DNA from: Ophelia neglecta
Taxonomy: Eukaryota
DNA: 64,000 bases
NCBI GenBank assembly: GCA_965285935.1
Contig: OZ260662.1
Span: 75,702,001-75,766,000 of the forward strand
Direction: 5' to 3'
This document shows positions 8,501 through 43,100 of this stretch, piece after piece (within the stretch, counting starts at the first letter, position 1; the number at the start of each line of letters is the position of its first letter). The notes beneath the pieces are model-generated. The model ran no database searches and was not told the DNA's origin. It worked only from the letters and a program-made list of their open reading frames with translations. A program made the position numbers and the translations under genes.

Positions 8501-11500
8501 TTGAGAGCAGGCCCCCCTTGGTGCAGGCCCTGACCAATTGGGTACCAATCGGACTTACCGCCGGCCACCCTAACACAACTCTCAAAACGCCTGTACCAGG
8601 AGAGGAGGATGCGCCAAAGTTTTCCTCTGATGTCCATATTGTATAGGGTATAGAATAGACCAGGGATCCACACCGAGTCAAAAGCTTTGCGGGCGTCTAG
8701 AAGGCATGCGTATACCGATTCTCCTCTAGCACGTTGATAATATATGGCCTCACGCATGTGAATGGTGGGGTGGAGGCTTGAGCAGCCCTTCTGACAAGCC
8801 GCTTGCATTGGGCTCACCAGGTTTCTGCCTTCTGACCAGTCAGTAATGCGACGCATGAGTATGCCTTCATACAACTTGCTCAGGACTGTCAGAAGCGTTA
8901 TTTTACGGTAGTTGTCCTTATTGACTGGGTTCTTACCCCCGCCTTTGTGTAGGGGTATTTCAATTCCTCGTCTAAAGTTCTCTGGGATATATTCTAGTTG
9001 AGTAATGGCGATGAATAAGTAGGTTAGACATTTAATTAGTTCATGACCGCCATATTTGAAATGCTCTGGGGCTAGATCGTCCCAGCCTCCCGCTTTGCCT
9101 GTACGCAGTCTGGATACGGCGTGGGACACTTCCTGTTCTGAGACGGGTTGCCCTAAAATGTTATTGGCACGAAGAGGCGAGTCTTGCTCGAAAACCAGTA
9201 GATTATGTTCCACGTGTTTTTTGAAGGCTTTGTCATAATAATCAGAGTCTGTGGGTTGGCTTAGCTTATAAAAGTAGTTTCTCCACTCGGTTCGGATGGC
9301 TTCAGATTCCGTAATGATGCTGCCATCCTCTGCCTGTATGGCTGAGCTCTTGTTACCACGGCCGCTTTTACGACGTTTCTGTACAAGTTTCCAGAAGTAG
9401 TTTTGGTCCACCTCGTTCGTATGGAGAATTTTTTCTTGTTCGCGCTCGTCGCTTTCATGTTCCGCGCGTCGTCTCTCCTTTCGGTAAATGCGCTTACTCT
9501 CCTTGTATTTTCTGAAAAAGGTGTTAATTGGTTGTCGGGGGCGGCCGGCGGCTTTCCAGTTTTCAAAGTCCAGAGTACACGCCCTTTTCATGTTGTTCAG
9601 TGGGGCCCTCCAGTTAGGCTTAATATGAGTCTTAGGGCATCGCCGGGGGAGGTTTGCCTCGGCTGTATAGTGAAGGCATGCTGTGACACGCTGGATAAAG
9701 TACTCCGCTTCCTCTGGGTTGCTGATGGCAAGTCTGGACCTGATAGTGATAAGCTCCTTCGAGACCGGGTAGGTATATCTCTGCCTTGTCTCTTCGGCTG
9801 ATAGTTTCTTCCAATTTATTTTACGTATGCTAACCCCTGGACAAGGGCAGGTAAGTGGGCAGATACCGATGCTTATATTTAGGGTCATGAACAGGGGCAG
9901 GTGATCAGATGTGATATCAGGATTATCAGGTAAAACCCGGCACTCGGATACATTATCTATTAGAGTTGTTGTAGTAAGAAAGTGGTCAAGGTAAGACACG
10001 TTACCATTGTAACCTATGTATGTGTGTGTTGGGCCGTCACATATTGGGGCCATGTCAGGGAAAACAAGGGCATTCTCAGTAGCAAAGTCTGCCAGCACGC
10101 TGCCATTATTAGATGTCTCACCCCAACCCCGATGACCGAATTCGCTTCCAAGGTGAGCATTCATGTCCCCTATAGTATTACAACAGGGCCAGTATTATGT
10201 AGAGTCTGAACTATTTCATTTAAAGTAGCGAGCACGTCATCAAAAGATATACTTTTACAACTTTGCTGTGGTAAGTAGGTAGCTAATACATGGACAGGTG
10301 ATTGGCTGTTTTTAAGGCGTAATGTTATGCCACAAATTCTATCATTATCGAACCAGTTCATCTCTTCGACACCTATTAAATCGTTAGACCAGAAAATGGC
10401 TACCCCTCCATGACCGATAACTGTGCCATATAGTTCTTGTTTGAGTCTGCCACTAGACTTGGCCATGCATGAGAAGTCAGGGCGGAGGGAATGAAGTCTA
10501 TCCAATTCACATGGGTATAAGAAATGTTCTGACAATGCCAAAATATCACACTCTGTAAGCAATGATTTTATAAACTGTTTGGAACCTGTAAAACCCCTAC
10601 AGTTCCACTGAGCGAACCTAAGACCATCTTTAACTACTTCGTTACTATTAGAACAAGAATTAGTATCTGACAAACACATGGTAATGATGAATATTATACA
10701 AGTACGACAAATTAAGTATCCCACGAGACTATAAATATGGGTTAGAGCTATGGTCATAGTAGATGTCCCGATTTGATGTCCCCTGGTATCGGGGGCGGAT
10801 ATCTCTAGAGAGCTCATCTTGGGTATCCGTGACTCTATCTCGGTAATGTTGGTAAGGATATGATGGATCATCATTTCGTCGCCTTTCCGTTTTCCATTTT
10901 GTCGCCAAAGAAACGCTCAGCTACCTTCTTGGTCGCCCAAGGAACTCTCAATGATCTCTCATGGATCTCTTCTGGTCTGTCGATGATCTCTCATGGTCGC
11001 ACCTGATCTTTCAGCGATCTCCATAGATCTCTCAATGAACTCTCTTGGTCGCCCAACGAGCACTCAGCAAACTCTCAATAGTCGCTGCATGAGGCTTGGT
11101 CTCCATTGATCTTTCAAGGATCTCTGAAGGATCTTTCAATGAGCGCTCAGTGAGCGCCAAGGTAGCTCAAAGGTCTCTATAGATCGCCATGAGTGTTGCC
11201 GAAAATTGAATTGTTGATCGCTCGACGGGCGCACAAGGATCTCCCGAACATTTACACAGAAACGGCTTTTTCGAGGCTTTTAGGAGATGGATGAGAGATC
11301 GGATCAATTTTTATCGCTCAATGGTCGCACAACGATATCCGAGCTGTGTAAAGGGGGCCTTACAAAATCATAATAACATTAGTTTCATGACAAAACAGTT
11401 TTTTTGATATATCTAAATTTACGCTTAATACATTATGATGATAATTAACAAAATTAGACAAAAGCTATAATTGTATCACCGTGTGTGGTTTAGGCATGGC

Positions 11501-20150: not shown

Positions 20151-20648
20151 TTAAAACCCTTCATCATCTGCATTGTCCGAATCCCACTCACAACTTTCTA
20201 TGATACCACCCTCAAAGTCCACTTCTGTATCATATATAAAATCTGTGTCTCCTGGCCTCTTCCTGTGAGCTTCAAATGAAGATTCCATTATGGTTTTTTT
20301 GCGCAATAATGTTTCTTCATCACACTTATTCAAGTCCTCATTGGGATCAACTGTGTCAATACCCTTGTTTTTATCCAGACTTTCTTCCAGAGAGAGCCCA
20401 TTAAGTTTATCCCGAATGATGGTTATTAACTTTTGAAGTTGAATGAGAGGCACTTTTTCCAGGTATGGAGAATGGCGTTTATTGGACTTCAACTCTTCGG
20501 CCATTCGTGCCACACCAGAATGCTTGGTGGAGTTCCTAAGTGGCATTGTACGCCTGTGTAACTTGCCTTTTGTCAAATATGTCACAATCAAAGCAGGTGG
20601 CTGAAATCGGACACCACATTTTTTCAAAGTAATCTGACTACTGGACAT
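20151..20648 (-). CDS. CEP19: Centrosomal protein of 19 kDa, single coding exon, 165 aa
   Basis: KKCGVRFQPPALIVTY...GKLHRRTMPLRN...DPNEDLNK...FIYDTEVDF...SCEWD. A splice acceptor at 20675-20676 lies upstream of the ATG at 20648. A probable 5'UTR exon ends at 21583 (GAG|GTAAAT). Confidence 0.92.
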   Translation of the reverse strand: MSSSQITLKKCGVRFQPPALIVTYLTKGKLHRRTMPLRNSTKHSGVARMAEELKSNKRHSPYLEKVPLIQLQKLITIIRDKLNGLSLEESLDKNKGIDTVDPNEDLNKCDEETLLRKKTIMESSFEAHRKRPGDTDFIYDTEVDFEGGIIESCEWDSDNADDEGF

Positions 20649-21469
20649 TTTGTCACATTTGTTGTTGTTCAGTTCTGAAATACAAAACAATTTTTTTGTC
20701 ATTAAGACCAGTTATTGATCATTATTAATTAAAAAAGAACAACTTAATAGATAGTACAATCAAATACTACTGATATCAGTTTAGATCTGCTGTCAATGTT
20801 TTGTTGTCACGAGGGTTTTAGCTAGTCAGGATTCTGTTTCTTCATAAACAGACATCAAAACCCTGCATTTTTATCAACAGTTAAATTTGTCATGGTCATT
20901 TTTGATTTGCATGAATAGGGATATATATATTTATAAAATAAATGCGGCTATTATGCCACATTCAAACATACTTCATTATTCCTAAAATGTAAGAAATTAG
21001 ACTTTCATGATATTGACCTGCAAATATGCATAATAACCCCTTAATTATTTGGATACATAGGCACTGGAAAAACACTAAGGTGATCACTTTGAATTCAGCT
21101 GAAAAAACTGGGTGGGTCTGCGGTCTTTCGAAGAAAATTAGTGAAATGCAAAAGGCTAGTGAGGGTGAAAAACGAATTGGGGAGTGACACAAAAGTTGTA
21201 ATCACTCCCTGAATAAATATGATTCCTAGTTATCATAGTAAACAATAGGATAGGGAATTAAATAACTTAAAATTTCAGAAATACTAAAATAGACAAACAG
21301 CGAAAAAAAATGATTCCTTTACCATAAGCCGTATAATACGGAATTAACAAACTGCTTTACAAGTTAAAACACGTTGTCCAAAAGTTGCGTGTGTACACAG
21401 CTGTTCATTGTATCTGTGTATATTTACTAGTATCATGTTTCACATCCATGTACATGTATTCGAATGCTG

Positions 21470-23175
21470 TTCGTTGCTAGAGAAATGAGCGAAATAAGGA
21501 CACTTGGTAATCTGGCATTCTACAATGCATAAAATGACGTAAATCACCATTCTTAAATATGTTAAAATGCACATATATTTACCTCAATCGCGTGAGTGTC
21601 TGTCCTTGCTGCCTCAGTGGGCTAATTACTGGCCTGGTTTGTTGACTATCGGGCAGCCATCTTGACCCTCTTTCAGTTGCAATGAAAATTCTTTCATGAA
21701 CCAAAACTAAAAGACTACAGATAGGTGGCGCCACAGGTAAAATTTTACAGAAGCGCTTGAACATTTGTCACTGAATCTGCCATTATTTATTACTGGATCA
21801 AATCGCAATAAATAGATATTTTTGTCAACAGTAAATTCCAATAAAATTACGAACTGGCCAAAAAACTAATATATTATATATCTATTATTTAATCATCCGA
21901 TGTATGTACTAGATCTAGACTATATCAATTTCTTTTAGACACACTTGAAGTAATATGGTGTAAATTCTAGATCTAGATCTATGTCTATAGAACTTCTATA
22001 CCACGGGATCTAGACTTATCCACATGCACGCGGAACTTTTGTTGTAAGAGAGCACGAATTTTGTTTTAAAACTGCAACTTTTGTTGGTTTCCCACAAAAT
22101 AATTTTTATTTTTATAGTTAATGCATGGGGGTGGCATTAAGTTTTTGCTATTTCAATTTACTGTCTCGACGTGGATTCATTTCAAAGAAACATATCTAGA
22201 TCTTATATTCTAATATAAGATTTAATAGATAAATCATCTGTGTATGCATTTCCTGCAGGATTAATCTTACAATATAAAGCAGTGGCGGATTTTGGGGGGG
22301 GGGAGCAGGGGGGGCGCCTCCCCCCCCCCCTTTTGCCAAAAGTGGGCCCCCCCTTTTGCGAAAAAAGTGGGCCCGGACCAGGGCCTCTTTCTGGACCTAC
22401 GCAAGGTGGTTTCAGAGGGTTGGGACCGGGGACAATCCAGACATTGGCCTTGTCAACTTTCGAAAATTCGCACCCTCCCCCCCCCCTCCCCTTCCTGAAA
22501 TGCTGGATCCGCCACTGTAAAGTAAGTGCCAATGGCACTATAAATGCTCAAATTATATTTTAATTGTGCTCCATCAACACAAAGGTGCAAAATAGAAATA
22601 TAAACAGTTAAATAGGCCTATATAGGGCCTAAGGCACAAATGACACCCGACAATTAAAAGCTATTAAACTATATATTAGACTAGATCTAGTTCATTTGCT
22701 TTTTGTGTTATATTAGATCTGATTATTTATTGGGTTTTGAATGTACTTTTGCAATATATTTTATGTGGATTTGTCAAATTTTGTCTTGCATAATATTAGG
22801 ATTACAAAAAAGGTCATCTCAGTGTCTTTCACGGCAAACTTTATTGAGGGGCGTAATTTTCGTAACTCTGCAACGTTATAATTACATTTAGAGAATTATC
22901 AAATGTTCCTTTTATAAAACAAGGCGTGAAACTGGCAATAGTCTGACAACTTCTTCTACCTTTGGCCGCCTTTGGTGTTTGTAAAAGCCTACAGTTTCGT
23001 GGCATCGCTAGGAATTGAATTGTTGCAAAAAATCTGGATCGTGAAAGAATTTTGCATGCTCTAGGCATGCGTATAGGCGTCCCGCCATTTTGCCTCTGAA
23101 GAATGGCTGCCATCGATGTCAAGATATGCTAACTTTGGCTAAGGAACTCTGATTTATTTGCTCAGTTGTGAGTGT
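21470..23175. promoter_or_regulatory. Divergent (head-to-head) promoter region for CEP19 and EMSY
   Basis: CpG-richer patches at about 21580-21800 and 22920-23130. YY1-type motifs AAGATGGC (minus, about 21656-21663) and CCGCCATTTT (23082-23091). NRF1-like GCATGCG at about 23065. X-box-like GTTGCTAGAGAAAT at 21473-21486. Non-coding exon donors at 21582 (-) and 23168 (+, GTGAGT). Confidence 0.55.
22280..22517. mobile_element. hAT-like MITE with 5-bp TSD
   Basis: TIR cagtggcggat / atccgccactg, flanked by taaag on both sides, G/C-run interior. Confidence 0.8.
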
Positions 23176-24451
23176 AGTATTTATTTATGGGTGACAAAGT
23201 TTGACGATATCATCAGGGAATCAAATGATATCGTATTTAGACACGTTAAGGGGACTATTTGGGGAAAAATATAGTATTAATGTCGCGACTTGGCACGAGC
23301 GGCTTCTCCTACACTTACTCAACTCTTTTATCTAGCTGGAATGATCGTTTTTTTACCATATCATTATCAGTTTGTTGGTTGTCGCTTTTGCTGTGCTACT
23401 GTACGGCTATGTGGTCATGATACAGGTAACAGAATATGAATTATTTACAAGTAATCAAACAAGTAAGGTAGGATTTAAATCGGGATGTCAACATCCAAAA
23501 GCGACTAGCATTGAGGCTCTCTTTCAATATTTTCATGGTGTGAAAACTCGGTTTTATTACACTAATTAACTTACAATACATGAAAGAAAGACACAGAATG
23601 ATTAAAAAATAAAGTAAATATTAAAGTAAGTTTCCTGGTGCATTAGTACAGTTGCTCGGCTGTCGGGAATCAAACAAATATCCCAATTGAGGGCAAAATT
23701 TTCTGAATATCTCATGTAAATCCATGTAAAGAGACAAACATTTTCATATAATTTTCAAGAATAAGAGCTACTCTGTTCATCTAAGGTAAATAACAAGGCT
23801 GACAACCAACCACAAGAGCTTAATCTGTGGGTTACAGAATCGGAAAGAATAGTTCGGAAGGAAAATGCATTTAATCTTGTATTGGAGCTCTAAGGGTGAC
23901 CTTTCATATTATACACCCATTAGAGATTCATGTTGGAGCTAAATGCATGACATCCAATCTCTACAGTGCAGTGATGAAATTTAAGATAGAAATGGTGCAG
24001 TACAACTATATTCAATAAAGTGGTACATAAATTCCTGCTTTAATTGCTTGTACAACCCCTGGGAGTTATGTATTATATGGTCTCTGCTATTTCTGTAAAG
24101 TAAATAAGGAATAAACTGTATCTTTGAAAAAAGAGCCAGTTTCGTGTTTCATTCAGTCGGGATAATTTAGACACAATCAGAGGCATATTTTATTTTGTTT
24201 TAAAAGAATAAATAAATAGATTAAATAGTTATATTTTGGTTTATTCGGTTCCACCCTGTCCCTGCTGGATGTGACATTGAATATAACTGTTGAATAATTG
24301 ATATTGCTATATGTAGCTTTGTACATTCTATTAAACCTAGTGATACTAGCTGTCATGTGCATCCAATGTTGTTTTTGAAAAATCCCCTTCAAGACAAAGT
24401 CAATAAAAAAAATCGACCGTCTACTATATAAGAATTCTATTTTCAGTGCGT

Positions 24452-27400
24452 ATGCTGAATGAATACATCATGTGTTCAACACATTGGCCCAAGTTGCTGG
24501 ATATGAGTAGAGATGAATGCAAAAGAATGCTGCGCAGTTTGGAACTGGAGGCATACAGTTCCATGGTGACAGCCTTCCGGGCTCAGGGGGACCTGAACAA
24601 ACCTAAACAGAAACTACTCCAAGACCTACAGTCCACTCTGAGGTCGGTCAATGAGGATACTCCAATCTCTGATACTGATTGACCATTATAACCAGCACTT
24701 GTTTTGTACCAGGAATAATTGGAATTTCACGCGAATGTTTACTACAGCCATAATGAATGTTCACTCTATGTACAAAAATTAGAATCCTGAAAAACAATTT
24801 TAGGATATTCATGATTCTAGTTCCTGGCAAGTGATTATGGAATAATTTGAATCATATAACAAACATTCCAGTCTTTTTTGGTAAAATAACAGATGTTGGT
24901 TATGGCATAGAATCAAGCGTGAGGAAAAAATTCTTTGCAGTTTTCTTTGATAAGAATAAATTTGGAACATTCATGTGTACTCATGGCTTGGTGCAATATT
25001 TTGTTTTCCAGTATTTCAACTGAACGTCATAGAGCAGAAATTCGCCGAGCTACAAATGATGAGAAGTTGACTACCATTGCTGATAAGTAAGTGGATTAAA
25101 ACATTTAAGTAGTTGCCTAAGGGAAAAACAATAAAGTTGGCAGTATGATATTATCAGCAGTTTTACTTCATTGAAATGTTTTTTATATAAACAAATTTCC
25201 AAATTACAGCATTGCCGGGCCTGATGTGAGCTCCGAGTGGCTTATAGAGGGACGTAGACTGGTCCCTCTCATGCCTAGACTAGTACCCCAAACTGCCTTC
25301 ACTGTCACAGCCAATGATGCTGCTAAAGTACAGGCAGAAAGAAACTTTACCATGCCCAGCCCTTCTTACACAGCTAATCTTGATGGTGAGAAATTTGTTT
25401 AAGTTTTCATTACACATTTGTTGTTTCAAATTATTTTGGTGATTCTAACCTAATAATATAATTTGCTCTTTCAAGCTATTGTGTCTGCCACAGAACATGC
25501 TGGTACATCTACTGGAAGCAACAAAATGGGAAGGCCTTCCAGCCCCACTTCTAATGTTGTAGTTCTGCCCAGTGGCATGTCTATACATATCAAAGGTAGG
25601 TCACTATTTCTTTGGTTCCACTGCAACTTTTGGTATTAGTACCACAATGTAATGCAGTAGTGGTTGGAGCATATTTTAGTACGTAGATATATGTGCACCA
25701 AGTAATCGTTTTAAAAATATCCAGCAACTAGGCCAACGCTGTCGGGGGGCCGACAGCAAGGGGTATATCCGCGAATGCGTGCAATAATCGAATGGGGAAC
25801 ATGGCATAAGGCGAGGTAGAGAATATGGTAGTTTTTAGTTGGCACAAAAGATAACGACCGTAACTAATTTTTGTTCAGGTCATTAATAAAGTTAAACTAG
25901 TTACTAGTTACACAGTACTAGTTAACTTATTACACAGATTGTAGTAGGTTCTATTTGACCTCAATAATAATGCAGGTCATTCTTAAAGATGGTGTCATAT
26001 GACCTCAATAATAATGCAAAACGGCCCTAACTAATTTTTTTTCAGGTCATTAATAAAGTGAACTAGTGAACTTATTATGTAGGTTCCATAAGACCTCAAT
26101 AATAATGCAAAATGACCTTAACTAAATTTTTTTCAGGTCATTAATAAAGTTAACTAGTTAACTTATTACACACATTGTAGTAGGTTCCATATGACCTCAA
26201 TAATAATGAAAAACTGCCTAAACTAATTTTTTTTCAGGTCATTAATAAAGTTAACTAGTTCACTTATTACACAGTACTAGTTAACTTGTTACACAGATTG
26301 TAGTAGCTTCTATATAACCTCAATAATAAGGCAGGTCATTCTTAAAGATGGTGTCATATGACCTCAATAATAATGCAAAACGACCCTAACTAATTTTTTT
26401 TCAGGTCATTAATAAAGTTAACTAGTTAACTTATTACACAGATTGTATATAGTTATTACATGAATCATGACACAAAACTTCAAGCCAATATCATCTATAC
26501 TTCAAAATATATGATAGAAAATGTGTTTTTGACCTAATTAATTAATTATTTTAACTAATTAATAATTATCAGAAATTCACCAGAATAAATACAGGTCTTC
26601 CTCTCAATAAGGTCTATGGCTGTGTCAAATAAGAAAAAGATGTATCAAATATTTTTTGTGTTATTGCAGAAAATGCGTTTCCGACGTAATTAATTAATTG
26701 TTTTAACTAATTAATAATTATTGGATTTTCACCAGAATTTAATCAGTTCCTCCTCTCAATAAGGTCTATGGCTATGTTGAATTTGAAAAAGATGTACGAA
26801 ACGGTTTTTGAGTTATCGCGTTAACGACTAAAATCTGCGGCGGCGGCGGCGCTACTGAAAACATAATATCCGCATTTCGCGGATATAATAATATTATTTG
26901 TCCTGTTAGATAATTACTATAAGTAACATTTTTTTGCTGAAGGTGGATTAAACACGGATGAAGAGGATGTACACGGCAAGAGACGAAGGCGAAGCAGCTC
27001 TGCAGAAAGTATAGTCATGACGCGAACTAATCCTGTAATCACAACGGTGCAATCTGCTTCTAAAGTATCAGCCATAGCATCTGCATCAAATTCAATACAG
27101 GTAAGAACTATGAAGAAAATGTACTTTTCGAGTGGTTCATAAAGCACTTTCGGGACTTTATACCCAAAAAGGAAAAAAAATGATGAGTTTGCATCTTAGC
27201 AATGATCTGTGGATCATAAGCCAATAACCTAAGAAAGCTAAAGCAATGTGCTATAATGGATATTTTAAAATGACAGCTTCTGTTTTTTACAGGGAATCAC
27301 TCCAATGAAGATTACTGTGCCAAAATCTCCAGCCAAATCGCACACTACCACAGTCACTCCAGCACAAAAAGTCATCATCGTGTCGAGCTCAGCGTCAGCA

Positions 27401-30400
27401 GTCGCTGGATCTAATGTCATACACAAATCTGTACAAAGTAAGAGACGTGCATACTACTAGTCTGCATATATTTTCCAAGTATCCTAGTGTAATATTGACC
27501 AAGTATTTCAGTAGATATTGTGCCAGTCGTATCCTTCACAAATCTGTACAGTAAGTTTGATAACTGTTGGTGAAATTCACAAATGAAAGCTTGTTTAATT
27601 TCCAAATATTAGATTTGAGAAGTAACTACTACAAAGTGTAACTTACTCTGATATGGCTGACATTGGAGTTGGTAGCCTTTGTCAGCCATGTTGGTTCACT
27701 GGCCCGGAGTATCCTCTTTCATTGCCTCCGCAGTGGGGAAATAGACAGTTATTCAACATACCGTAAATGATGTAATAAAAGACTTGTATCTGATAAAAGT
27801 CACACCCTTCATTTTAGAATAAGTTGGGCCATAGTCATATAAAGGAGCGTTGTTATTCCATTATGAGATACACTCCCGAGTTTGATACAGAATTTCATTA
27901 TTTTATGTTGCTGAAAAATGCTAGACTTTTATTAGATCAAAGACGGTATTTGTTCTTGTTTAAACAGTTATTTGTATGTTTGTTTTGTTATTTGATGTTA
28001 ACTATAACTTACTTAACCCAGTTCCAGTAGTTAAGGCAGGGAGCACCACAACTGTGACCAGCACAACATTCTCTCAACCACGACCGTCTATAGTGCTACC
28101 CTCGAGCTCCAACATCAACATGGCCACTCACAATGGTAAAACAATGAATTAACCATATAAAAATAACTCCTTTATCTTGATGCTGCTCTTGGGCGCATGC
28201 TATGACAAGTTTTTACTGGTAATTTGATAGGGGGCACCATTTTCATTGAAATTGGGTTTCCCCACATAAAACTTTTCAGTGCTAGTATCATGCCTTGTCA
28301 TGCTGTAACAGGCATGTTTAACTGCAGAGAATAACTGTACCGCCTGCAGAGCTAACAGGAAGGTTATTTAGTTGTTAGCCATCTTTTAAGAGTTTTTTAT
28401 ATATATGGTGGGATGCTGTTGATCCTGTTGGTTGTGGATGATCAGTTGGCTTGGTAATGTTTCAGTGTCTGCCAATACAATGGCCACACCCGGTTCCTAT
28501 GTGACAACGACATACACCACTCCTAGACCCAGATTGAAACACATCACCACGACACGACAAAAAACTCCTCAGGTAACTTTATACAGCAGTTATATATTTA
28601 TAACAATATCGAATTAAGTTTCTCAAATTTTAGTTGTTTAAAGCAAAATGAAAAAAATGCTGAGGTTAAATGGTTGTCATTCAGTGTCTCCACCTAAACA
28701 CTTTCATGTAAATGATGTGGCAAAATTTTTTTCCAAATAGCTTTGGTTTTAAAGGAAATAGGAATTTGATGAACTTTTCAAAGCATATGTGTATGTCTCT
28801 GACCACTGAAGAGGACGAGGTACAATAAACAAGGAAGACCTTACCACTCAATTCTATATGCCTTGTTTAGTTGGAATAAATCTCTTAGGCAGAGAAGCAA
28901 TTTAAAAAAGTGATTACACCTGTACATGGCTACACAGCAGGATATTGGTGTCTTTGTTTGGTTCTGGGTTATGTCTTATACCTAACTTATTCCTTACCTG
29001 CAGCTGATTGGTGGACGTTCTGGTATAATCCTTCCAGTAGGCTCGTCCAATCAGGTCGGCACCCCCAGTATGCAGAACATACAGATCAGACCAGTGACAA
29101 AACCCACCATTCACATTAAACAGGAAGGAAGTAAGTTAACAACTCTTACCTTTATTAACATCAGAAATGATCAAATTATACTTAATGTTTCTATGGTAGA
29201 AGTTTGTTAATCTATTTGTGTAGTATATACTATATGTAGTCAGGACTCAATTATCATGTCATGCTTTCCTTTGTCAGGTATGAAAATAATCACTCAGGGT
29301 ATACCAGGTGGCACCAGTAAGATACTGCCCAAGCCTACAGGTGGTGCCCCGGTGGTAGTTGTAACCACTGTGCCCTCCTCTGTACATATTGCTAAAGGAC
29401 TCAGCACAACAGGTTAGTAATCTGGGACTATTCACACTAACAAGGCAAAAGTAATGTGGAGGTGTGTTCAGTCAGTTGTCTAACCATTTCATTGTTAAAG
29501 GAGAGAATAGTATTGATATATGAACAGTTTAGATAAACATGAAGTGAATGATGTATTCTAAAACTATATATTCTTCTCTGCCGGCCTGCAGGAAAAGTAC
29601 TGAATTTCTCCACGGCGGGTGGCCGACTGATCGCAACAGCCACCAGTCGAGGGACAGCAGCCAATGTGGTGACTGTCAACCCAAAGACGCTGCAGCTGAC
29701 GACTGTCCGCGGGGCCACCGGGGGCGCCACCATGTTGACCGGGAGTCGCATTGCCACGCCGACAGGTGCCAAACCCAATGTGATAGTGGTGCAGAAAGCC
29801 CAGCCCAAACGGTCCCAGACCCCCACCACACCCACCACTATACATATATCTAAATCATCAGCCTCCAGCAGCCCTTTTGAAAAGGTATCTTAATATGGGT
29901 ATTTCTAAGCAGTAACATAGTTTTACTCTTGATCATTCTGTGGCCAGCATTTGTTTAGTTGGTGGAGGGATGCAGGGTTTATTAAAGAAGAAAATAATGA
30001 TTTTATTCATTTTTTAATTTTTTTTAACTCAGTCTTGCCTAGTTTATCAAACCAAGTAGTCTTTGTTGCCACATAACTATATTTATGATTCTCCATTATG
30101 TTTAGGAACTGGTGAGCTTTATACAGAGACAAGACACCCTGCAGAAAGGTTCTCAACCTCAAAAGTTCAATATACAAAAAGGTGCTAACAAACCAACAGT
30201 AGAAGTGACAAAACGAGTAAGTCCTCAGAATTATTCTTTGATTATATTTTGCCTGCCATTAATGAAAAACCACAGCTGTCCCTCAAGGGGAAGTGAAATG
30301 ACTGGGCTTTGGAATACCAGTAACTGTAACAAACTTTCTTACAAAACAGCTTTGAATCAGTGTTCACTAGTGTTCATATAGTTGATCAGTTTCCTTACAT

Positions 30401-33400
30401 GTCCGGATTTAATTGTTTATAATTAAATCTTTTAATTTCAGCCAATAGTAGTCAGGCAGCATGCGACTGGCGAGTTGTCCATACACAGGTCATCTGCTGC
30501 GTATTCTGGGCAGGGTACGGTGGTGACCACCATGGGAGGGCGCTCCTCTCTGCTGGCCGAGCTGATACAGGCCGTGGGCATAGGTCCCGAGTCCATAGAC
30601 CAGGCCTCGGAGGAGGTGGTCATCACCGAAGACTCCCAGGCAGTGGCAGCAATCACTGGCGACCAGCCCTCTAAAGGTTAGTTCATTGTAATATCAACAA
30701 ACTAGCAACCAAAAGTTGTTTGTCATGATTTTTCTTAGGAAAAAGACAATAAGCTGGTAGGTAGCCACATGTTCAGGGTTTTATGTTTTGTAAATATTGA
30801 TAGTTAATGGTGTGTACCTGTTAGATGCTGGACCTAACCAGTGGGTAGAGTATGACATAGAGACAGCCCCTACAGAAGAGCTGATCTCTGGTCAGGAGGC
30901 TGCCGACTCTACAGATGACACGGCCATCAAGGCATTGCTAGACCTAGGGGCTAACTCCCAGAGTAAAGCCCAGCCCGCCCCTTCCACCTCGCTCAGTCTG
31001 GGGGCTGCAGGGGAACCTCAGCAGGACTTCCTCACTCTCGGTCAGTCAATACACTAACAGTATAGTTAGTATCAGACCTGAACACAAATATTTCTCAACA
31101 CATAAGAATACTGAAGTTCCCTTTGGTTTGTAAAATAGTGTATTTTAGATTTACAAACAATTCACCTGTAATCAATGTAGAATTGTTAATTATAATCAGA
31201 AAATAAAAATTGTTAATTATAATCAGAAAAAAAATTCCCTCTTTTCCAGAACAAGTGCAAAATATGATTGCAAATCAAACAGTTACTGTGCAGCCAGTCA
31301 ACAGTAGCCGGACGGTAAGTTAGATCCTTTCTCTAGATTCGCATGATTTAAAAGAAATCAATAATTATTTTTTGTCAGTAGTTCATTGCAATATTTGCGA
31401 CTTTTTAAATAATGTGTGTGTTGGTTATTGACAATAATATTGGTTTTAGTCGAGCGGACAGTTGGTGCGGCCCAGTAGCGGTGGGGTACATATCCAGATG
31501 GCTGGGAGCCAGGCCCTGGGTCAGCTGACCAGCCTGAGTCAGGAGGAGCTGGCTGAGCTGGACCCCCAGACAGGACTGTTCTACACCACCGCAATGGGCA
31601 CCATGGCCTCAGGGAATACCTCTCTCTCAGCCAGTACGGCCAGTCATGTCCATAACCTAAAACTGACTGATAACGGAGGCCCTGCCACCTCCAAACACAA
31701 TATCGACACTATCTCAGGGGCGGAGCTGGCAGACTCTGTGGCCAAGGCAGGGCTTGGCCAGAAGCAGATGGACTTCTTAACCAGTGCCCTGAATCAGGCT
31801 CAGATTGATCTCGACCCGTACCAGTTCATTGAGGAGGACGAGCCCTCGTTTCCAGCCAAGCTGGCCCAGCAGCAAAGCCTTGAGGGAGTATCGTCAGAAG
31901 TGATGGTGTCGAGCGAGAGCCAGGGACCACTGGTCAGCATCCTCAGTCCCCAGTCCTCGCTTCTCAGCTCAGTCACTCACACCTCAATACCAGCTACACA
32001 GGCAACTACTAACTCAATAGGTCAGTCTAAAACCTCCCACTAGCAACCTATCATCATATAACAGAATGCTAGACTGTGTTATTTTTGAGAAAATTAATCT
32101 GGATATGTACAAACAATTTTGATTAATGTTTGACAGTTGAAACATAATAATTTGACCCAGTGGGTGTAAATGTGAAAGAGCACTTTAGTAAAAGAAATGA
32201 TTTATCTCTTAATGCAAAAATCACTCAAAAGGAAAACCTGCTTGATTAATTATTGTTGATTTTTATTTTGCAGTGCTTTCTCGAGAAGAGACTCATGTTA
32301 CTGAAGATGTGTCATTCCCGCTACCAGAAGTATTACGAAGTCAGCCTGCAACATCAGGAATGATCAGAACTCAAGTAATCACCACCACATCACAGCCCTC
32401 CAACCCAGTCAGACCCAAGTCATTTATACCAATACAAGACGTCCTGCGGAAAGCTACAACAAACATCACCGTGGTCTCTCAGGTAATCACCAGCTTTACT
32501 TATGATAAGGATATCAGGTCCATAGCCAGCTATAAATTAGAAATGCTTTGATTTTTTCTATGTCATGTTAAAAGTGTACCTGCTAGAAGTGTGAAAGGGC
32601 ATACCCCCCCCCCCCCCCCCCAGTCAGAAAAGTTTGAAAAACTATTGTTTGTTGGCTGCTTGCCTGTATAAGATGGTTTCTTCTTTTTGCCCAGTTTCCT
32701 TTTGCCAACTTTTCCTTTTTAAGCCTTGATCAGAACATATTTTAGACTCTAATATGGTGGTTTAACTGCAGGCCTCTCCCAGCACTCCTACCAATGTGGC
32801 TGTGGCCGTGGAACCCACAGGGGCCACTGGCCTCGATGCCACTCACATGAAGATAGAGGACTTCACCAGCCAACTCTACAACGAGCAATCTGACGTGTCA
32901 GACCTGCAGCAGGAGGATACCAGTCCGTTTGGTAGCCCCACCTCCCTGTCGACGGGCACCAGTCTGTCCGACAGTCAGGACTCCCACTCAATGAGACTAG
33001 GTAAACGAAAACGGAAACCGCCGCCAACACCAGATGAGATTACCACACAGTCCTCAGTAGGAGGGTGGGTCAGGATCGCTCTGGGGTAAGAACAAGGCTA
33101 AACAGTACACTGTCATCAAATATCAAATGGTTGATCCATGAATGTGTGTCTCTATTATAGCATTAAACAACGTAATGACTGCTGAGTTTATAAATGCTTT
33201 TAATTTAGATTATTGCAACGGGTATGCCGATTCCGAGGCTCCTACAAAGAGAAGGGAGAGATGAACGCAGCATCCTGGTTCACCAGACCAGGTCAGTACC
33301 CAGTGTGCGAATTTAACGATAGACCGATAGACAATGTCTATAGAAAAAAGTTGTAAACAAAATTCATGTTTATTGTGCAGTAAACAAATATATATCCCGA

Positions 33401-36400
33401 CGTAACCTGTAAACTGCGGTAAAGTCTGTGTTAAGAAATATGCCATGATGCCAGAACCTATTTCCAGCAAACTAAGCGACATCTAAATGTGATAAATACG
33501 TATTTGAAACGACGCATTCAGTACTACTTCTCGTAGGTCCAGAACATCAAATGTTGCCGGCTAGTAGTGTGCGTTTGCGAAAGTTGTAAATTGGTTCGCG
33601 GTTTCCGGCGAAGTTTTGCTGATGTCATATCGCGTCGGCAGAAGAATGTCATTTTAAAGATATGTGAGTGTAGCAAAGCCGGGCCAGGCAGTGAAAAGTG
33701 AACAAATAAGTAATAGATAAAACTTTATTTTATTTATTGATTTTCACTGTTAAAAAGTCCATAATATTACTACGTTACAGCTTTTTACATGCCCACAGAA
33801 ATCAATCATATGCAGATTCGGTCTATGAACATGTGTAAAGGTCTATAAACTTTTCATTTTTCATAGACCACTTGTCTACAAAGATAATAAGTTAATGTCA
33901 CACACTGAGTACCATGGCATTAAACCACTCACCAGTTAAATTAAAAAGTCATGTCAGTAGTTGATGATGGCCGGGATGTTCTGATTGTTCTGCTTGAATT
34001 AAACTGTGTGCGTCTCATATCTGATACTATCGACTATTTCTGCTACTCTACATGCATGTATATATTCTTGTGCAGTTATAAATAAAATATAGTATTATAA
34101 GTATTATAACTTAAAACAAATCCTGTTCCTCCCTCACCTTCCGGATACTTCCTTCTAGGCTCACAGCCCATCAATATATGTTTGTCCAAAATGAGACTGG
34201 GATGCAGCGCTTTAAATTGTCATCTGTTTAACAATCCCTGCATTGCTAGTCCATTGTGTCATTGTGGTGAGGATAATGAGACACCCTGTCACTTAATTTT
34301 CACTGCAACCGCTTCGCGGTCTCCAGGGGCTCTATGCTGTACTTCCTTCACACAAATGATATATACGCCTCGGTCGTCCCTTTACTATTTGGTACCAACA
34401 ACGAAATCTTAAACTCCAATTTAATTCATGTTCTGGAATCCTATATAGGCAGCACTGGGCGGTTTTAGTGTCTTCATATTAAAATGGGGGGACACAACTC
34501 GTTAATATTAATCATTATTTTTTTTTTTTCATGTACTTTTTTTATATATATATTCCTTTTTTTTTATTCATTTAGTTCAAAAAACCATGTATATATGTTG
34601 ATGTTATTTATTCACCTTCACCTTAATGTTTTAAGTCTTATGTTGAGTGTTTTATTTATCTAAGTTGAAGTTTATACTTATTTATGATTAATGTGTTTAG
34701 CACCTGTTTATCAATCTTTTTATCTTTCTGTTTATCTATGTTATATCCATATGTTAATTTACTCAAAAATGTATTGAAAAAAGTAAGGAGAAGCCACTTG
34801 ATTAGCCCCGCGCTACTTGGACGATCCCAATAATAAAAATATGTTTAAACCAAGTATTATAACAACACTAAATATGAAAAAAGTTAATTTGCAGTTTACT
34901 GGCAGTTTTAGTGTAAATAATCTATTTTACCTTGAACAGTATAACTTTTATTACTAATCACATGTTGATAATTCATGTATTTGCACACCTCTTTTTCTCT
35001 CCTAGTGGACCCAAATGAAGTGCCTGATTACTATGAAATTATAAGAAATCCCATTGACTTTGGCACCATCAAAAAGAAGTTAGAGGTTAGTTATAATAAC
35101 TTTTCTATATATTAAGCAATAAAAGAAACCTACTGTGTTGTAAAAAGTAACTGGGGCACCAAAGAAATAAACTGAGCAGACAATAATTGTAATCTGAGTA
35201 CACTTACAAAATCAATACCCACCCATGGGCGGAGGTTTTCTAAGATCACGTCAGTAATCTGAGTACACAAAATCAACACCCACCCATGGGCGGAGGTTTT
35301 CTAAGATCACCTCAGTAATCTTAGTAAACTTAGTAAAAGAAAGTACCGTATTTGACCCTTTAGAAGCCGCACAAAATACGTTTTTCAGATCTTAAATTAG
35401 GGATAAAATTATGTCAAAGTTTGGGGTGCGTCCTATAACAGACTACAGGGTTGGAAAACTTCCAAAAATTTGAGCGAAGCTCTGTCAGCGGTGGGCGAAA
35501 ATAAAGGAAATTAAGGACAACCAATGCGACCACGCAAACGTTTTTAATACTTGCACAGCAAAACGTATTAAAATAAAAGCAACTCATTTATTTACCTTCC
35601 TATCATTGTGAACTGGTATATGTACTGTTTAATGATGCATAATTTAACGAAATTCGATGTGTAAGAATCACCGAACGCAGTACCATTATGTTTACAATAA
35701 ATTAGTGTCAGCACAGTCGCTAGAGGTCAGCACTATGATCACTGCTGAGATAGGTTGGGGAATCTCGATGAAGAGTGATTAGCGTTGAAACAGGCCTCGC
35801 TAATAAGCGGTAGGCCGAATTAATAATTGCTCTTAACCCTCAACGGATTTTAACACCTCACAAATGAGAGCCTAATCTAATTTTGAAGTTTAAAATTTCT
35901 GACATAAACAAGAGTACACAAATCCAACTTCAAAGGCGATATCCAAACCTGGATGAGCGGCAAACTCAGTGCATTCACAGGCGATGTGTAATTTACCGGG
36001 CTGTGGGCGAATGGATAGCAATTGAGGAAATACGCCAGTCGGGAACCATAGAGAACAGTTTCACAGTTTATCAGTCTTTGATGATTTATGGCCCCGACTT
36101 GGCTAAAATCAGGGATCGCATTTGGGGCGCCCCAAAGGTATTTGGGGCGGGACAGGTGCCCCAAACCTGCCTTAAAGGTATTTGGGGCAGGTTTGGGGCA
36201 GGTTTGGGGCGCCCAAAACTGTCCCAAACCTGCCCCAAAGCTAGTTTGGTATAACCGAAAATATATCAGTTAATATGATTTTTTAATTGCTTTTCAGGCT
36301 TGATGGTAAACATCAATTCAGTGTTGCTTTGTCCTTTGAAAACCTTAACAGGTTGAAAACCCAACAAAATGTAGCTTCACACATACTAGGTGTGGCTTCA

Positions 36401-38558
36401 CATTCATTTCGACAACGGCATTTGTTAATTATTGTCACACCTTATGACCTCCTGTAGCTAATTAAAGAAGTTTCTGATGTATTTAACTGCATTTGATTGA
36501 GTGTAGACTGGCTGTGGAGAAAAGCTGTGAATTGGGTTGTGCAGAATTCAGGAGATAAGGATACTGACTTTCCCAATCATGGTATTTTCCAGACTGTTTA
36601 TTCAAGAACATACTATTCACAATGCAGTCCTGTAAGCCTTGATATGTTTGTTTTGTTGGCTATGAGTCTGTTACCCAATCAGTCTAGAAGACTTCACAAT
36701 TGCATTAATGAATGAGACCCCACTTTCACACTATAGGCCCCCCTAGTCCCCAAGATCTGTGGTTCCATACGAATGAAGTTAAATAAAAAAGTCAAAAAAG
36801 TCAAATTGTGACTTTTTTGTGGTGAGGTTTAAATCATGATTTAAATCACTTGAGTTAAATCATGGCGGCCCTGGGTACAAGTCCTACCTAACATGTTCAA
36901 AGGTGGACGGGTTAGGGTTAGAGCAAGTGTTCTATTGAGCGAGTGTTCAGCTCCTTTGGCCTTGTGCAATCATAACTTAGTAATCATCTTGGAAATGACA
37001 AAGCCCAGAAACTTGTGTTTTGCTACCGAATGCTTAGAGGGGTTATGGAAATAGACTATTGAACAAATTCTATATGATGGCCAAGTGTTTGCTTGTGCAT
37101 ACCAGAGAACAATACCTAGAAATTACTTGTCCATGCTGATTGGTGAGCCACTACTAGCTTGGCATCTAATACTGTCTTGCAGGGCCCCATACAACTAACA
37201 GTATAGTGCAATCCTTGTATAATAAGAACCTATATTTGATCATGTTGTTGGATTGGAAGTCTATACCATGTGTATAAAATAAAATATATTTAGCCTAGAG
37301 TAGAGCGGTGGTATACCGAAGTTGTGAATGCAGCTTGTGTCTATTGATCAATGAATGTACTTTTAAATTAGTGAACAACTGGTCTCTGTATGTAAAAGTA
37401 TGTACATATCTTATTAATACATAATTAAAGAGTTGTAATTACAAAAAGTGGTATTGATTCTATACATTTAACCCCAAACTAAAAATTAACAGTTTGGGGC
37501 GCCCAAAACCCGCCCCAAACCTATTTGGGGCGGGACAGGTTTGGGGCAGGTTTAAACCAGGTTTGGGGCGTCCCATGCCCCAAACCTGCGATCCCTGGCT
37601 AAAATTAGGGCGCAGCTTCTAATGGACTTTTTGGTGAAATAAAGTCAGTCTAAGAATATTCACACAGAATTCTTTAGAATTGGGGATGCGGCTTTTAATA
37701 GATATGAGGCTTCTAAAGGGTCAAATACGGTAACCACTTAAAAGAAATTGGAAAAGTAGGTGAAACCTGTCAAAATTGGACACTTACGCCAAGGCTACTA
37801 TGGTTATTCAGACATTTATATTACCAATAATACAATATATATGATATTATCCTGTTTGGTATTAAAAAATATCATCCTTAGTCTTCTGTGGGTACTGATT
37901 AATAAGCTTTCATTAAGGATATATTTTGAGCATAAGCTGATTATAGATTGATGTGATTTCCCCTTGGCAGGCTGGTCACTACCACGACTGGGAGGACTAC
38001 CACGCCGACATGATTCAGGTGAGAGACAACTGTTTCCAATACAATCCGATGGGCACGGACGTGCGGCGAGACTGCGAGGAAGTCTTCTCCTTCTACCTTA
38101 ATGAGTACGACAAAGCCCTGGTCAAGTGGCAACAGGTAGGAGTCATGCATGTATGTTGACTTTTCTTACTTCTATACTTAATCATAACACTGATGTAGGA
38201 CAGTAAAATATTTTGCATGAAGCAGTTTGTGTGCTACTGCTCAGCTATTGTGAAATGACACTGCTATTAAGTAATGTTATTTTTCCTTATTTTGAAACTT
38301 GTCAAGTAGTAACCCACTATGATTTATTGGACATTAACAGAACTATAGATGATTTTAATATGACTACCATTCTATTCTGCTGATCTTAAGATGGTGTGTT
38401 ATGATATTTCATTATTGTCTTCAGATATGGTAGAATTTATATCACATGACTTATGTCTCGCCTTCCCCTTTCAGACTCATGTCGCAGCAACATCACCATC
38501 AGGGAAAAAGTTCAAACTGACCTCCAGTCCGGTAGCAAACAGGACTCCACTAAACTAG
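24452..38558 (+). CDS. EMSY: BRCA2-interacting transcriptional repressor EMSY (ENT domain) with C-terminal bromodomain; 22 coding exons, about 1257 aa
   Basis: Exons 24452-24642, 25012-25086, 25210-25385, 25476-25595, 26943-27100, 27293-27437, 28022-28135, 28466-28572, 29004-29130, 29278-29412, 29592-29884, 30106-30216, 30442-30676, 30825-31040, 31250-31314, 31450-32020, 32274-32482, 32772-33085, 33209-33291, 35006-35085, 37971-38135, 38475-38558 (3774 nt, phases consistent). ENT domain: [70 protein letters not shown]-rich middle. Bromodomain: [32 protein letters not shown]...NCFQYN. Confidence 0.92.
25726..26890 (+). mobile_element. Helentron-associated interspersed element (HINE/DINE-1-like) with an internal tandem array
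   Basis: 5' hairpin gctgtcgg/ccgacagc (25738-25757). Subterminal inverted repeat tatatccgcgaatgcg (25764) against cgcatttcgcggatata (26871). 3' hairpin atatccgc-atttc-gcggatat, a (GCG)n microsatellite at about 26837, and internal tandem repeats. Confidence 0.75.
25860..26452. repeat. Tandem array of about 90-170-bp variant units inside the HINE
   Basis: Five copies of aactaattttt..tcaggtcattaataaagt, interleaved with actagttaacttattacac and tgacctcaataataatgca blocks. A second approximately 165-bp duplication lies at about 26520-26820. Confidence 0.85.
33301..33907. mobile_element. Non-autonomous hAT-like element with 6-bp TSD, in EMSY intron 19
   Basis: TIRs cagtgtgcgaatttaac / gttaatgtcacacactg; agtacc duplicated at 33295-33300 and 33908-33913. 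Confidence 0.75.
34111..34851 (+). mobile_element. 5'-truncated LINE (CR1/L2-group 3' end)
   Basis: Degenerate RT C-terminus [31 protein letters not shown], a T-rich 3'UTR ending aataaaaatatgtttaaac, and a 12-bp TSD aagtattataac (34099-34110 and 34852-34863). Confidence 0.8.
35189..35325. repeat. Tandem duplication of about 62 bp
   Basis: gtaatctgagtacac...aaaatcaa.acccacccatgggcggaggttttctaagatcac occurs twice, plus a partial third copy. Confidence 0.8.
36110..37597. mobile_element. Non-autonomous hAT element nested in the mariner element
   Basis: TIR cagggatcgca / tgcgatccctg, 8-bp TSD gctaaaat (36102-36109 and 37598-37605), many subterminal tttggggc / gccccaaa repeats. Confidence 0.88.
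36540..36873. mobile_element. Right-end fragment of the 19013-19954 hAT family, nested in the 36110-37597 element
   Basis: Near-identical to 19594-19954 (gcagaattcaggagataag...aaatcatg..ggccctg). No left TIR or TSD was found. Confidence 0.8.
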
Positions 38559-40127: not shown

Positions 40128-43100
40128 TCATATCCAGAAGCCTAACTGTTCGGTGTGCCCATTCCCAGGCGTGGCAGAGTCCTGGCTCTCGCCCTTGGGC
40201 TCATCTAGTTCACGATCTTCTGGAACTTCTTTGAACGTTACTCGCTTCTGAACTTTTGGTTTTGAAAACACATTCCTAGAAGTAGTACAACCGCCTTCCC
40301 GATTGTTAACCCGTGCCTCCTGACCGTATGTCCACAAAGTGCTAGTAGTGCTTGCAGCTAATACTACTTTGGGTTTTGGAGCCAGCGGTGGAGGTGTTTT
40401 TAATCTATCAGGGAGTGGCCGTTCGTCCATATTTTGGCCGGCAACAACAGGTTGAACCATATCACAGTTTTCCTGAGTATTGGCAGAGAGTGTACCGTGG
40501 GCACCGATCCCTCTCGACGGGTAATTATGTCGTATTTCCCTCTGCTTGAGGGATTCTAAAAAACTATCCACACTTTCTTTGGTATTGTCTTCACAATCAA
40601 CTTTATCCTGTGGTATTTCAGCAGAATTCGTATAACTTTGATCGGCGTCCTTGCTGTGATTATTAGACGAACTAATGCTGTTTAAAGTTCTAGGAAAAGA
40701 TTGTGTAGTTTCAAACAAGTGTAGTGAGTATGAACTCGTATATTGTTGGTTTGGTCCTGTCTCCCTATTAGGGTCTTCTTGCGTTTGTTGGTTAGGAGAT
40801 AAGTCGCAACTCCTTTTCCTTTCAGTTTTGTTGGCTACTAGGTCGCCGCAGTCTATCGCGTATTCTCTGATTGACTCCAGGTCAGAGTGATCTACTCCTT
40901 CAAAATACCCTGACTCTTGTTTGGGAGAGCTCTCCTCGGAGGAGGTGACTGAATGGCCCTTTTGTCTATGGTCGATATGACTCTGTGGAGCGTGAAACTC
41001 GAATGGTCCCAAGTAATCACTATTGCTCGCACTTGATTGGCTCTCCCAGGGTGAGTCGGGAGGTGAATCCGGCACGCTGTTTTTCATGAATAAACTTCCC
41101 TTTTCACCAAGTTTCTTCATGGCATCTATTGCAATGTCAGTGAGCACGTCGTGTCTGACACCTTCTATAAAACCCGAGTCGGTTCTTTGGTGTAATGATT
41201 TGGTAATCGGCCGGAAACTTGATCCCGGCCCCGAATAACTGAATTTGCTCTTGGCCTGTTTTGGCCGCGTTCGTGTTCTACGTTTCCGGTGCTCGGTTTT
41301 TGGGGACTTGCAGGACACATCGGAGCTCGATTTGGGCTCCTCCGCCGGCGGCCCTACCCTGGGACTGAGCCGATGAATGGATTCTACCTCGCGTAACCGA
41401 GACAAGTGTCTTGTTCCATTATTTGTTCGAACTTGGGCTACTTCCAGAAACACCTGATTTCCGTCCAAGTCTCGCGTGCTCCATCTGGAGCCCGCAACGT
41501 GAGAGCACGTGATGGGAAGCAGGGGAGCCAGACTGGCCACATCCGGTACCCTAATGTTAAGAGCGGTTCGTCGCGTTTGACTGGGCACGACGCCCCGGGG
41601 AAGTTTCTTCAGAGCAAACTGCACGTCGTAGTGCACGTGGCTTTCCAATGTGAAAACACAGAAATCCAATTTGACAAACTCCGGATCCTGCCCTAACAGT
41701 AACTTATAAAGATTAATGGTGTCCTGCCAGTTGTGTGACGTGACAAACCTCACAATGCGGACGTGTTCTCCGCCGCAGTGGATCTGTCGCACGGAGCAGA
41801 GCGGAAGATCCTCCGACGGGAGGAAGTAGTCGTGGCTGTTGTACTCGTACGCCTGAATGTGATAGGCGGACACCCACTCGCTGTGGTGGAACTTCCACGG
41901 CGGCCGCTCAAAATACCTTTTAGCTTTCGAGAGACGATCGTTTCCGATCATTTCCTCTTCCTGTAGAAATATAATGATGGCCAGCGATGGCATCTCTAAT
42001 GTACTCCCAAGACGTACCGGCTCAAGAATATCACCCATGACATCATCATTGTCCACACACTCAAATATACCGATGTTTGGGTCTATCCATCCGAGAAACG
42101 GTTTGTACAGATTAACCAGCTCGTCTGGGTTCTCACTGGGCGAGAGAAACAGGAGGCTCATCATTGGCTGTGGAGGATTTGTCGCCGGAAGTGACGCGGT
42201 CAGAGACGTCATATCCGAGAAGCTGGTATCGACGGTATCGGTGTCGGAGCAGACGGCTACTGGCCGGTCGGACCATTCTTCTCGGATGCTCGCACAGAGC
42301 ATGACCTTCTTTGCGCCAGCTGAAAACAGACAGCATATAAATTGTTAGGCCTAACATAAAATATTATGAAATTGTGCCTTCCGTTTATCATTTCAATGAT
42401 AATTTAGTTCCACCCATTTAACAAAATTTCACTTCCATACCTATAGCTATGAGCTCTTGAATGCCATCAAAGACATGTAGGCTTTCAGACAATAGACTGA
42501 AGGTATAGATTTATGTCAACCTTCTAAAACTACTGGAGTAAACTCGAATTTGAAAATATTATTGTTTTCTCGTGCACACTGCTAAATAGACCAACAATAA
42601 CTGCACTTTTACCAGGCACTTTATAATTATACCACAAATAGACCTTAGGCCTAATTGTCGATGCGAATTCAGAAAAGACCGTTTCACATTTTTTGTGACC
42701 TTTCCGTCTGTAAACCTTGGCCACGGCAAACTTTTTTTGGATTTTATTGCCAGTATGGGTGCATAAGCACCAAGTTACTGAGAGGGACTTGTCAGAATAA
42801 CCTAAAAATTATCAAAGCTGGCTACATGACGGCCAGCATGTTTGAGACGCCGAGGAGCTGGAAAATTCATGGGCCTTAAATTTGTACCCTTACATGGGTC
42901 GTAACTTTACGAATTTACTGTGTACAGACGCATTCGCAAAATATAACGGAAGTTTCTAATACCATGATCGCATCAGTCCCACATGCAGCTGGTCTTTCAC
43001 GCAATTAACCTTACATACAATACAAAAATCAACTCATCTATAGAAATCATTCGCTTTTACTACTAACATTATGTGCTATTGTATATATATACAGGGAAGC

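Follow-up and report, generated by a model that had tools for sequence, protein, structure and literature searches.

The stretch of DNA analysed here, a window of 64,000 nucleotides (nt) from Ophelia neglecta (contig OZ260662.1, positions 75,702,001 to 75,766,000 of the forward strand), contains a gene for EMSY whose predicted product has an N-terminal ENT domain, a disordered middle and a C-terminal bromodomain (exons 18-21). Amplification of EMSY occurs in breast and ovarian cancer, and its part as a subunit of a SIN3-HDAC-KDM5 complex is little understood. Work on EMSY has been done in vertebrates and flies, the very groups that apparently lack this bromodomain. Taken as a whole, the explanation that we consider probable is that both domains belong to a single gene, that this fusion is ancestral to animals and was undone twice, and that the bromodomain would read acetylated histones and so anchor a SIN3-HDAC-KDM5 complex.

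The gene model was built by reading positions 19500 to 40000 of the window and refining the splice sites. It runs on the + strand from the ATG at 24470 to the TAG stop codon at 38558 in a chain of 22 exons, and all of its introns are of the GT-AG type. The coding sequence of 3756 nt specifies 1251 amino acids (aa) and has no internal stop. Its features are the following.

24470 to 38558, + strand: EMSY gene, coding span, 22 exons, 1251 aa (splice sites, frame and colinear tblastn matches on 18 of 22 exons)
24470 to 24642, + strand: exon 1, start codon and first half of the ENT domain (Pfam PF03735, 48.5 bits against a cut-off of 28.5)
25012 to 25086, + strand: exon 2, second half of the ENT domain (PF03735 positions 42-66)
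25210 to 25385, + strand: exon 3, of which aa 95-118 (25244-25315) are identical to the human EMSY region crystallised with HP1
25476 to 32482, + strand: exons 4-17, Ser/Thr-rich middle, predicted to be disordered, with short conserved motifs
32781 to 32882, + strand: landmark motif of exon 18, aa 1014-1047 (34.6 bits on a profile built without the window sequence)
33003 to 33017, + strand: basic cluster KRKRK, aa 1088-1092, near-invariant across the alignment of EMSY relatives
33060 to 33085, + strand: 3' end of exon 18, start of bromodomain helix Z with the invariant W1109
33209 to 33291, + strand: exon 19, end of helix Z, 13-residue family-specific loop and W-F shelf of the ZA loop
35006 to 35085, + strand: exon 20, ZA loop with Y1151 and helix A (PF00439, 30.4 bits)
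37971 to 38135, + strand: exon 21, helices B and C, Y1193-N1194 and gatekeeper V1200 (PF00439, 21.9 bits)
38475 to 38558, + strand: exon 22, basic Ser-Pro tail and stop codon

A preliminary description of this DNA had proposed one gene with an ENT domain and an intact-looking bromodomain, and the analysis bears this out: the 22-exon frame is open, eight independent full-length relatives matched 18 of the 22 exons in order when compared with the window by tblastn, and relatives carry both domains. Exons 7, 8, 15 and 22 found no match in this comparison; exon 22 is backed by blastp and by a profile match reaching residue 1244, and exons 7, 8 and 15 are placed by splice sites and frame. The junctions given earlier for the bromodomain exons (donor/acceptor 33085/33209, 33291/35006, 35085/37971 and 38135/38475) are all GT-AG and in phase. 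The bromodomain motifs had been named correctly as well, but the extent of the domain has to be amended, as it runs from the 3' end of exon 18 into exon 21, with exon 22 forming a tail. The stretch behind the ENT domain to which HP1 and BS69 bind had been described as retained, and 24 of its 24 residues are identical to the human chain of PDB 2FMM. Compared with records named EMSY, the N-terminus is 68-79% and the middle about 27-44% identical; within the middle, serines follow a basic cluster (aa 194-201) at a position equivalent to that of the human kinase sites. The KRKRK cluster is likely to be a nuclear localisation signal. A genome search found a single ENT locus, the EMSY gene described here, and with exon 21 as query returned one other match, which is weak (E value 0.475), so that no second EMSY-type bromodomain was found in the genome. 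DNA contigs from three runs of one sample contain no spliced joints; their depth corresponds to a single copy at the bromodomain exons and is high in introns. Among 40 of the 311 sequence differences, five are coding differences, a number too small to draw on; all of these are synonymous and none lies in the bromodomain exons.

In bromodomains, a tyrosine of the ZA loop and an asparagine of the BC loop anchor the acetyl-lysine. Pfam Bromodomain matches exons 20 and 21 separately, each above the cut-off of 21.7 bits, and the corresponding residues are Y1151 (35029-35031) and N1194 (38043-38045). For comparison, 43 EMSY-type bromodomains, including that of the window, were picked to cover taxa and aligned; they are 43-65% identical to the window's domain. 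W1138, F1139, P1142, Y1151, P1158, D1160, N1189, C1190 and N1194 are kept in all 43, Y1193 in 42, and the hydrophobic gatekeeper proposed earlier is V1200, a position occupied by V, A or I in 42. The pocket residues align with the corresponding residues of BRD4. Conservation extends beyond the canonical pocket, with W1109 and D1203 kept in 43, G1125 in 42 and C1204 and E1214 in 41 of the 43 sequences. Predicted structures of two relatives contain the four-helix bundle Z, A, B and C. In one of them, 65% identical in the bromodomain, the fold is predicted with a local distance difference score (pLDDT) of 95-98, and its model superimposes on CREBBP (Z score 16.9, root-mean-square deviation 1.9, 110 residues aligned) and BPTF (16.5, 1.2 and 104, respectively); PHIP, Rsc1 and many other structures score within one Z unit, with identities of 20-33%. 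The full-length model of the Lingula relative consists of an ENT domain, a disordered middle and the bromodomain, with 921 of 1185 residues below a pLDDT of 50. Solved bromodomains found by Foldseek are 28-34% identical to the relative's domain, and the ESM Atlas returned only generic bromodomain clusters. By these models, the EMSY bromodomain is one without a close solved relative, for which many families are tied. Its own traits are the invariant W1109, the 13-residue loop after helix Z and, in the model, a helix C of 28 residues. The asparagine and tyrosine kept in all 43 sequences and the predicted fold of the relatives suggest that the bromodomain reads acetyl-lysine directly.

The taxonomic range of this layout was assessed in two ways. 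A search with exon 3 returned 2678 relatives, and among the best 120, 99 are at least 800 aa long. A bromodomain is present in 34 of these, namely 29 spiralian records (molluscs, Lingula, two nemerteans and an annelid) and five further records, and missing from 65, namely 64 vertebrate records and a partial one from Argonauta. The long vertebrate records, all 64 of them, agree with the earlier statement that human EMSY has no bromodomain; they include many isoforms from cartilaginous fishes, coelacanth and reptiles. When 1.84 billion representative proteins were searched with a profile, 19,633 matched. The best 150 comprise 71 proteins with an ENT domain, of which 22 also have the EMSY-type bromodomain; 18 others show this bromodomain but no ENT domain, and the bromodomains of a further 59 are of other types. 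Thirty proteins were identified by name, and 26 selected proteins were scanned with Pfam. The scan of animals for ENT plus bromodomain that the preliminary description had suggested found both in 12 of the 26: in the sponges Sycon and Corticium, Trichoplax and the cnidarians Hydractinia, Dendronephthya and Sanderia, and, among bilaterians, in Owenia, the millipede Chamberlinius, the scorpion Centruroides vittatus, Acanthaster, Ptychodera and Branchiostoma. Custom profiles added Lytechinus, Antedon and Holothuria, and PF00439 scored 66-86 bits in 13 relatives. The Pycnogonum record has a bromodomain without ENT. Records with ENT only are those of hagfish, lampreys, the insects Anabrus, Blattella, Hetaerina and Frankliniella, the mite Oppia, a partial tick record and the flatworms Calicophoron and Schistocephalus. 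The records of the mite and of these parasitic flatworms lack the landmark motif as well as the bromodomain, and possible losses in the two groups should be taken as no more than leads. Among the named records, none was identified as coming from tunicates, crustaceans, nematodes, ctenophores or choanoflagellates, and word-based homolog searches with exon 21 and with the millipede bromodomain returned nothing beyond the query.

The fused layout had been ascribed to "this lineage". The fusion is indeed present, but its restriction to one lineage was too narrow, since it is the usual state in animals. A lineage-specific gain in molluscs or spiralians was likewise rejected because the layout is present from sponges to amphioxus. 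On a profile built from spiralian sequences, the 43 EMSY-type bromodomains score at least 140.8 bits, compared with at most 81.6 bits for 59 other proteins. In the phylogeny that had been proposed as a check, they form one clade against 118 other bromodomains (FastTree support 0.968, 108 columns), whereas their sister group is unsupported (0.139). Records in amphioxus, two sponge and Hydractinia clusters end at the position of intron 18 of the window, and these record ends suggest that intron 18 is an old, shared intron. We infer that ENT plus bromodomain is the ancestral architecture of animals, dating from their last common ancestor. The earlier suggestion of a possibly ancestral architecture lost in vertebrates is supported by its range from sponges to amphioxus and can be extended by a second loss in insects.

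The manner of loss was traced with the landmark motif, using a profile of 12 spiralian seeds for which the best of 935 shuffles scored 8.4 bits. In the window, the motif lies 60 aa before the bromodomain. It scores 39.9 bits in amphioxus, 29.1 in Ptychodera, 26.3 in Acanthaster, 22.2 in Pycnogonum and 41.7 in the scorpion, and it precedes the bromodomain in these animals as in spiralians and echinoderms. In Anabrus (32.1 bits) and Blattella (30.8 bits) it is located 6 aa from the C-terminus, and the Anabrus C-terminus maps onto the start of exon 18 by tblastn. In vertebrates, it scores 8.2-14.2 bits at 14-32 aa from the C-terminus. A vestige of the bromodomain was sought in vertebrate records with a profile of the spiralian domain, and none was found (best score -2.7 bits). 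These positions point to loss by C-terminal truncation just behind the landmark motif, and the losses in vertebrates and insects would be separate because amphioxus as well as myriapods and chelicerates keep the bromodomain, given the accepted animal tree. In a reverse test with a profile of the last 80 vertebrate residues, the site before the bromodomain was the best match in 11 of 29 proteins and a look-alike motif near the N-terminus in the other 18, including that of the window. A conserved motif in exon 4 (25476-25595) resembles the vertebrate C-terminal motif, and it and the exon 18 motif (32781-32882) may serve the same kind of binding partner.

Several points weigh against this account. 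The outgroups of the tree are unnamed multi-bromodomain proteins, and its in-group was picked by profile score. The vertebrate matches to the landmark motif are weak and mutually non-independent, the hagfish score equalling the shuffle maximum, and the profile did not detect the motif in sponges, Trichoplax, cnidarians and the millipede, nor in scallops, oysters, mussels, Hetaerina and Frankliniella. No non-animal record with ENT and bromodomain was identified among the best 150 of the 19,633 matches, with 30 proteins named. The absence of the domain from a single protein record can be an annotation artefact: EMSY and its bromodomain are separate models in Centruroides sculpturatus, the split-off part being named 'bromodomain-containing factor 1-like' in public annotation, but joined in C. 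vittatus, and one amphioxus record ends at intron 18, before the bromodomain. The absence in vertebrates and insects is itself read from protein records rather than genome DNA. The evidence for the fold comes from models of two relatives and not from the window's own bromodomain, and conserved pockets can also serve non-histone ligands. Finally, fly EMSY, which is reported to be essential and which we read as lacking the bromodomain, indicates that the domain is dispensable in some lineages (PMC6242963).

As to function, the bromodomain would bind acetylated histone tails, its ligand being histone acetyl-lysine, and would anchor the SIN3-HDAC-KDM5 complex of EMSY on acetylated, H3K4me3-marked promoters. 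Structures of the human and trypanosome ENT domains suggest that ENT dimerisation would present two bromodomains, and the partners of this EMSY would be those known from human and fly. Human EMSY is described as belonging to a SIN3B-HDAC-KDM5A-PHF12-MRG15-GATAD1 complex located at H3K4me3 promoters (PMC9309374), fly EMSY (CG15356) purifies with SIN3 220 (PMC6242963), and EMSY is reported to bind HP1 and BS69 (PMC8394001; PMC5355139). Binding to BRCA2 is likewise reported for EMSY. The label "repressor" given earlier to the EMSY scaffold is uncertain because the human complex is also associated with the activation of a subset of genes (PMC9309374). The same association lends weight to an alternative in which the fusion history is unchanged but the bromodomain serves an activating or acetyltransferase-linked complex, promoting transcription at active promoters instead of deacetylation. 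In Arabidopsis, moreover, GTE4-EML is reported to co-occupy genes with acetylation and H3K4me3 (10.1101/2024.07.25.605061), and the trypanosomatid ENT protein lies within the CRKT network with BDF3, BDF5 and HAT2, so that these plant and trypanosomatid cases leave room for an activating role. We nevertheless regard it as unlikely, since human and fly EMSY both copurify with SIN3, HDAC and KDM5 and so bracket most bilaterians (PMC9309374; PMC6242963), and the N-terminal 140 aa of the EMSY described here are about 68% identical to those of vertebrates.

A small probability is also assigned to the idea that the bromodomain mainly binds a non-histone acetylated protein or acts as a protein-protein surface formed by the helix-Z tryptophan, the long loop and the long helix C. 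The conservation of residues outside the canonical pocket, which equals that of the pocket itself (W1109 and D1203), and the length of helix C in the model would fit such a role, but the residues of the canonical pocket (Tyr, Asn-Cys and Tyr-Asn) are all retained in animals ranging from sponges to amphioxus; such a role and histone reading are not mutually exclusive. Very improbable is the view that, in O. neglecta, the bromodomain exons form a separate gene or that most transcripts end upstream of them: although retention of intron 18 would at once bring in a stop codon in frame and yield a protein of 1115 aa that lacks the bromodomain, and introns 19 and 20, the longest ones, contain AATAAA/ATTAAA sites, helix Z begins inside exon 18 in frame with the preceding EMSY motifs, exons 19-21 have no start of their own, the genome has one ENT locus and no second EMSY-type bromodomain was found in it, and relatives encode both domains on short contigs. 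The relatives in question are five beyond the spiralians named, with proteins of 1176-1217 aa on contigs of 3.7-5.1 kilobases, which would correspond to spliced transcripts and imply that one transcript joins ENT and bromodomain in these animals. A chance neighbouring gene as the source of the bromodomain was rejected, as was the pseudogene reading.

Full-text searching, to which subscription papers and supplements, including the original 2003/2005 EMSY papers, were closed, found no literature on an EMSY bromodomain. The architecture is readable in databases, yet apparently undescribed. Tentatively, and jointly at somewhat less than even confidence, we propose that the EMSY bromodomain represents an unstudied subfamily which dates back to the origin of animals and has no human or fly member, that joining an ENT scaffold with a reader of acetyl-lysine is an old rule among eukaryotes, realised as a fusion in most animals and by partners in plants and trypanosomes, that human EMSY is a truncated form which must borrow its reader, and that its C-terminal motif is the stump beside the lost bromodomain. 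The finding draws attention to this conserved motif, which sits right at the C-terminal end of vertebrate EMSY, and to a further bromodomain subfamily, none of whose members has a solved structure. The ancestral layout also opens direct tests of which acetyl mark is read, of deacetylase targeting in invertebrates and of the replacement partner in vertebrates.

The surroundings of the gene were also inspected. A CEP19 coding exon (20154-20651, - strand; Pfam PF14933, E value 2.4e-48) lies head to head with EMSY, and a putative shared promoter and non-coding first exons are probably located at about 21300-23200. A 738-codon open frame with a FAM124 domain (40131-42344, - strand; PF15067, E value 1.7e-54) lies tail to tail with EMSY. 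Farther upstream, a broken retroelement without long terminal repeats (7155-10916, - strand) has endonuclease and reverse transcriptase pieces in three frames. Intron 20 (35086-37970), the longest intron of the bromodomain, contains nested inverted-repeat elements, the outer with 28-nt arms (35344-35371 and 37705-37732) and the inner with 34-nt arms (36189-36222 and 37489-37522); their depth in DNA contigs is far above that of the exons, and they are likely to be non-autonomous DNA transposons. Intron 4 (25596-26942) holds a very high-copy repeat with a summed contig depth above 100,000, compared with 10-30 for exons.

Among known systems, human EMSY (C11orf30; PDB 2FMM, 1UTU and 1UZ3) and fly CG15356 have in common with the protein described here the ENT domain, the following 24 residues and the landmark motif, and resemble it in the basic cluster and serines near aa 200 and in the long disordered middle. 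However, vertebrate EMSY ends 14-32 aa past the landmark motif, while this protein continues for 204 aa, and vertebrate records have no trace of the KRKRK cluster or the bromodomain. The same layout is found in the EMSY-like database proteins of molluscs, Lingula, nemerteans, annelids, echinoderms, amphioxus, cnidarians, Trichoplax and sponges, where the PF03735 and PF00439 tags on RefSeq and UniRef records are automatic annotation only. In Arabidopsis, EML1/2 are reported to bind the BET protein GTE4 via their ENT-Agenet region, so that an ENT protein is coupled to an acetyl-lysine reader at promoters as proposed here (10.1101/2024.07.25.605061). There, however, the bromodomain resides on the separate protein GTE4 and EML itself carries an Agenet/Tudor reader, a layout not encountered here, as Pfam found no Agenet domain in seven stretches of the window or in the 26 relatives. 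In the trypanosomatid CRKT complex, which unites an ENT protein with BDF3, BDF5 and BDF8, an ENT protein likewise belongs to a bromodomain complex, but the bromodomain acts in trans and an acetyltransferase is part of the complex. The Leishmania ENT protein is reported as almost 14-fold enriched near BDF5 (PMC9279504), and that of T. cruzi is placed in the CRKT core, its contact with BDF3 being a prediction in a preprint (10.64898/2026.03.22.713544). BET proteins, with two bromodomains and an ET domain, differ from EMSY, which has one bromodomain and no ET match in the relatives. With the solved bromodomains of CREBBP/EP300, BPTF, GCN5, BET proteins, TAF1, PHIP and PBRM1, the EMSY type shares the four-helix fold and the pocket residues, with Z scores of 16-17 to many of them, but identity is at most 28-34% and the EMSY type has its 13-residue loop after helix Z, across which domain 3 of PBRM1 aligns without a gap.

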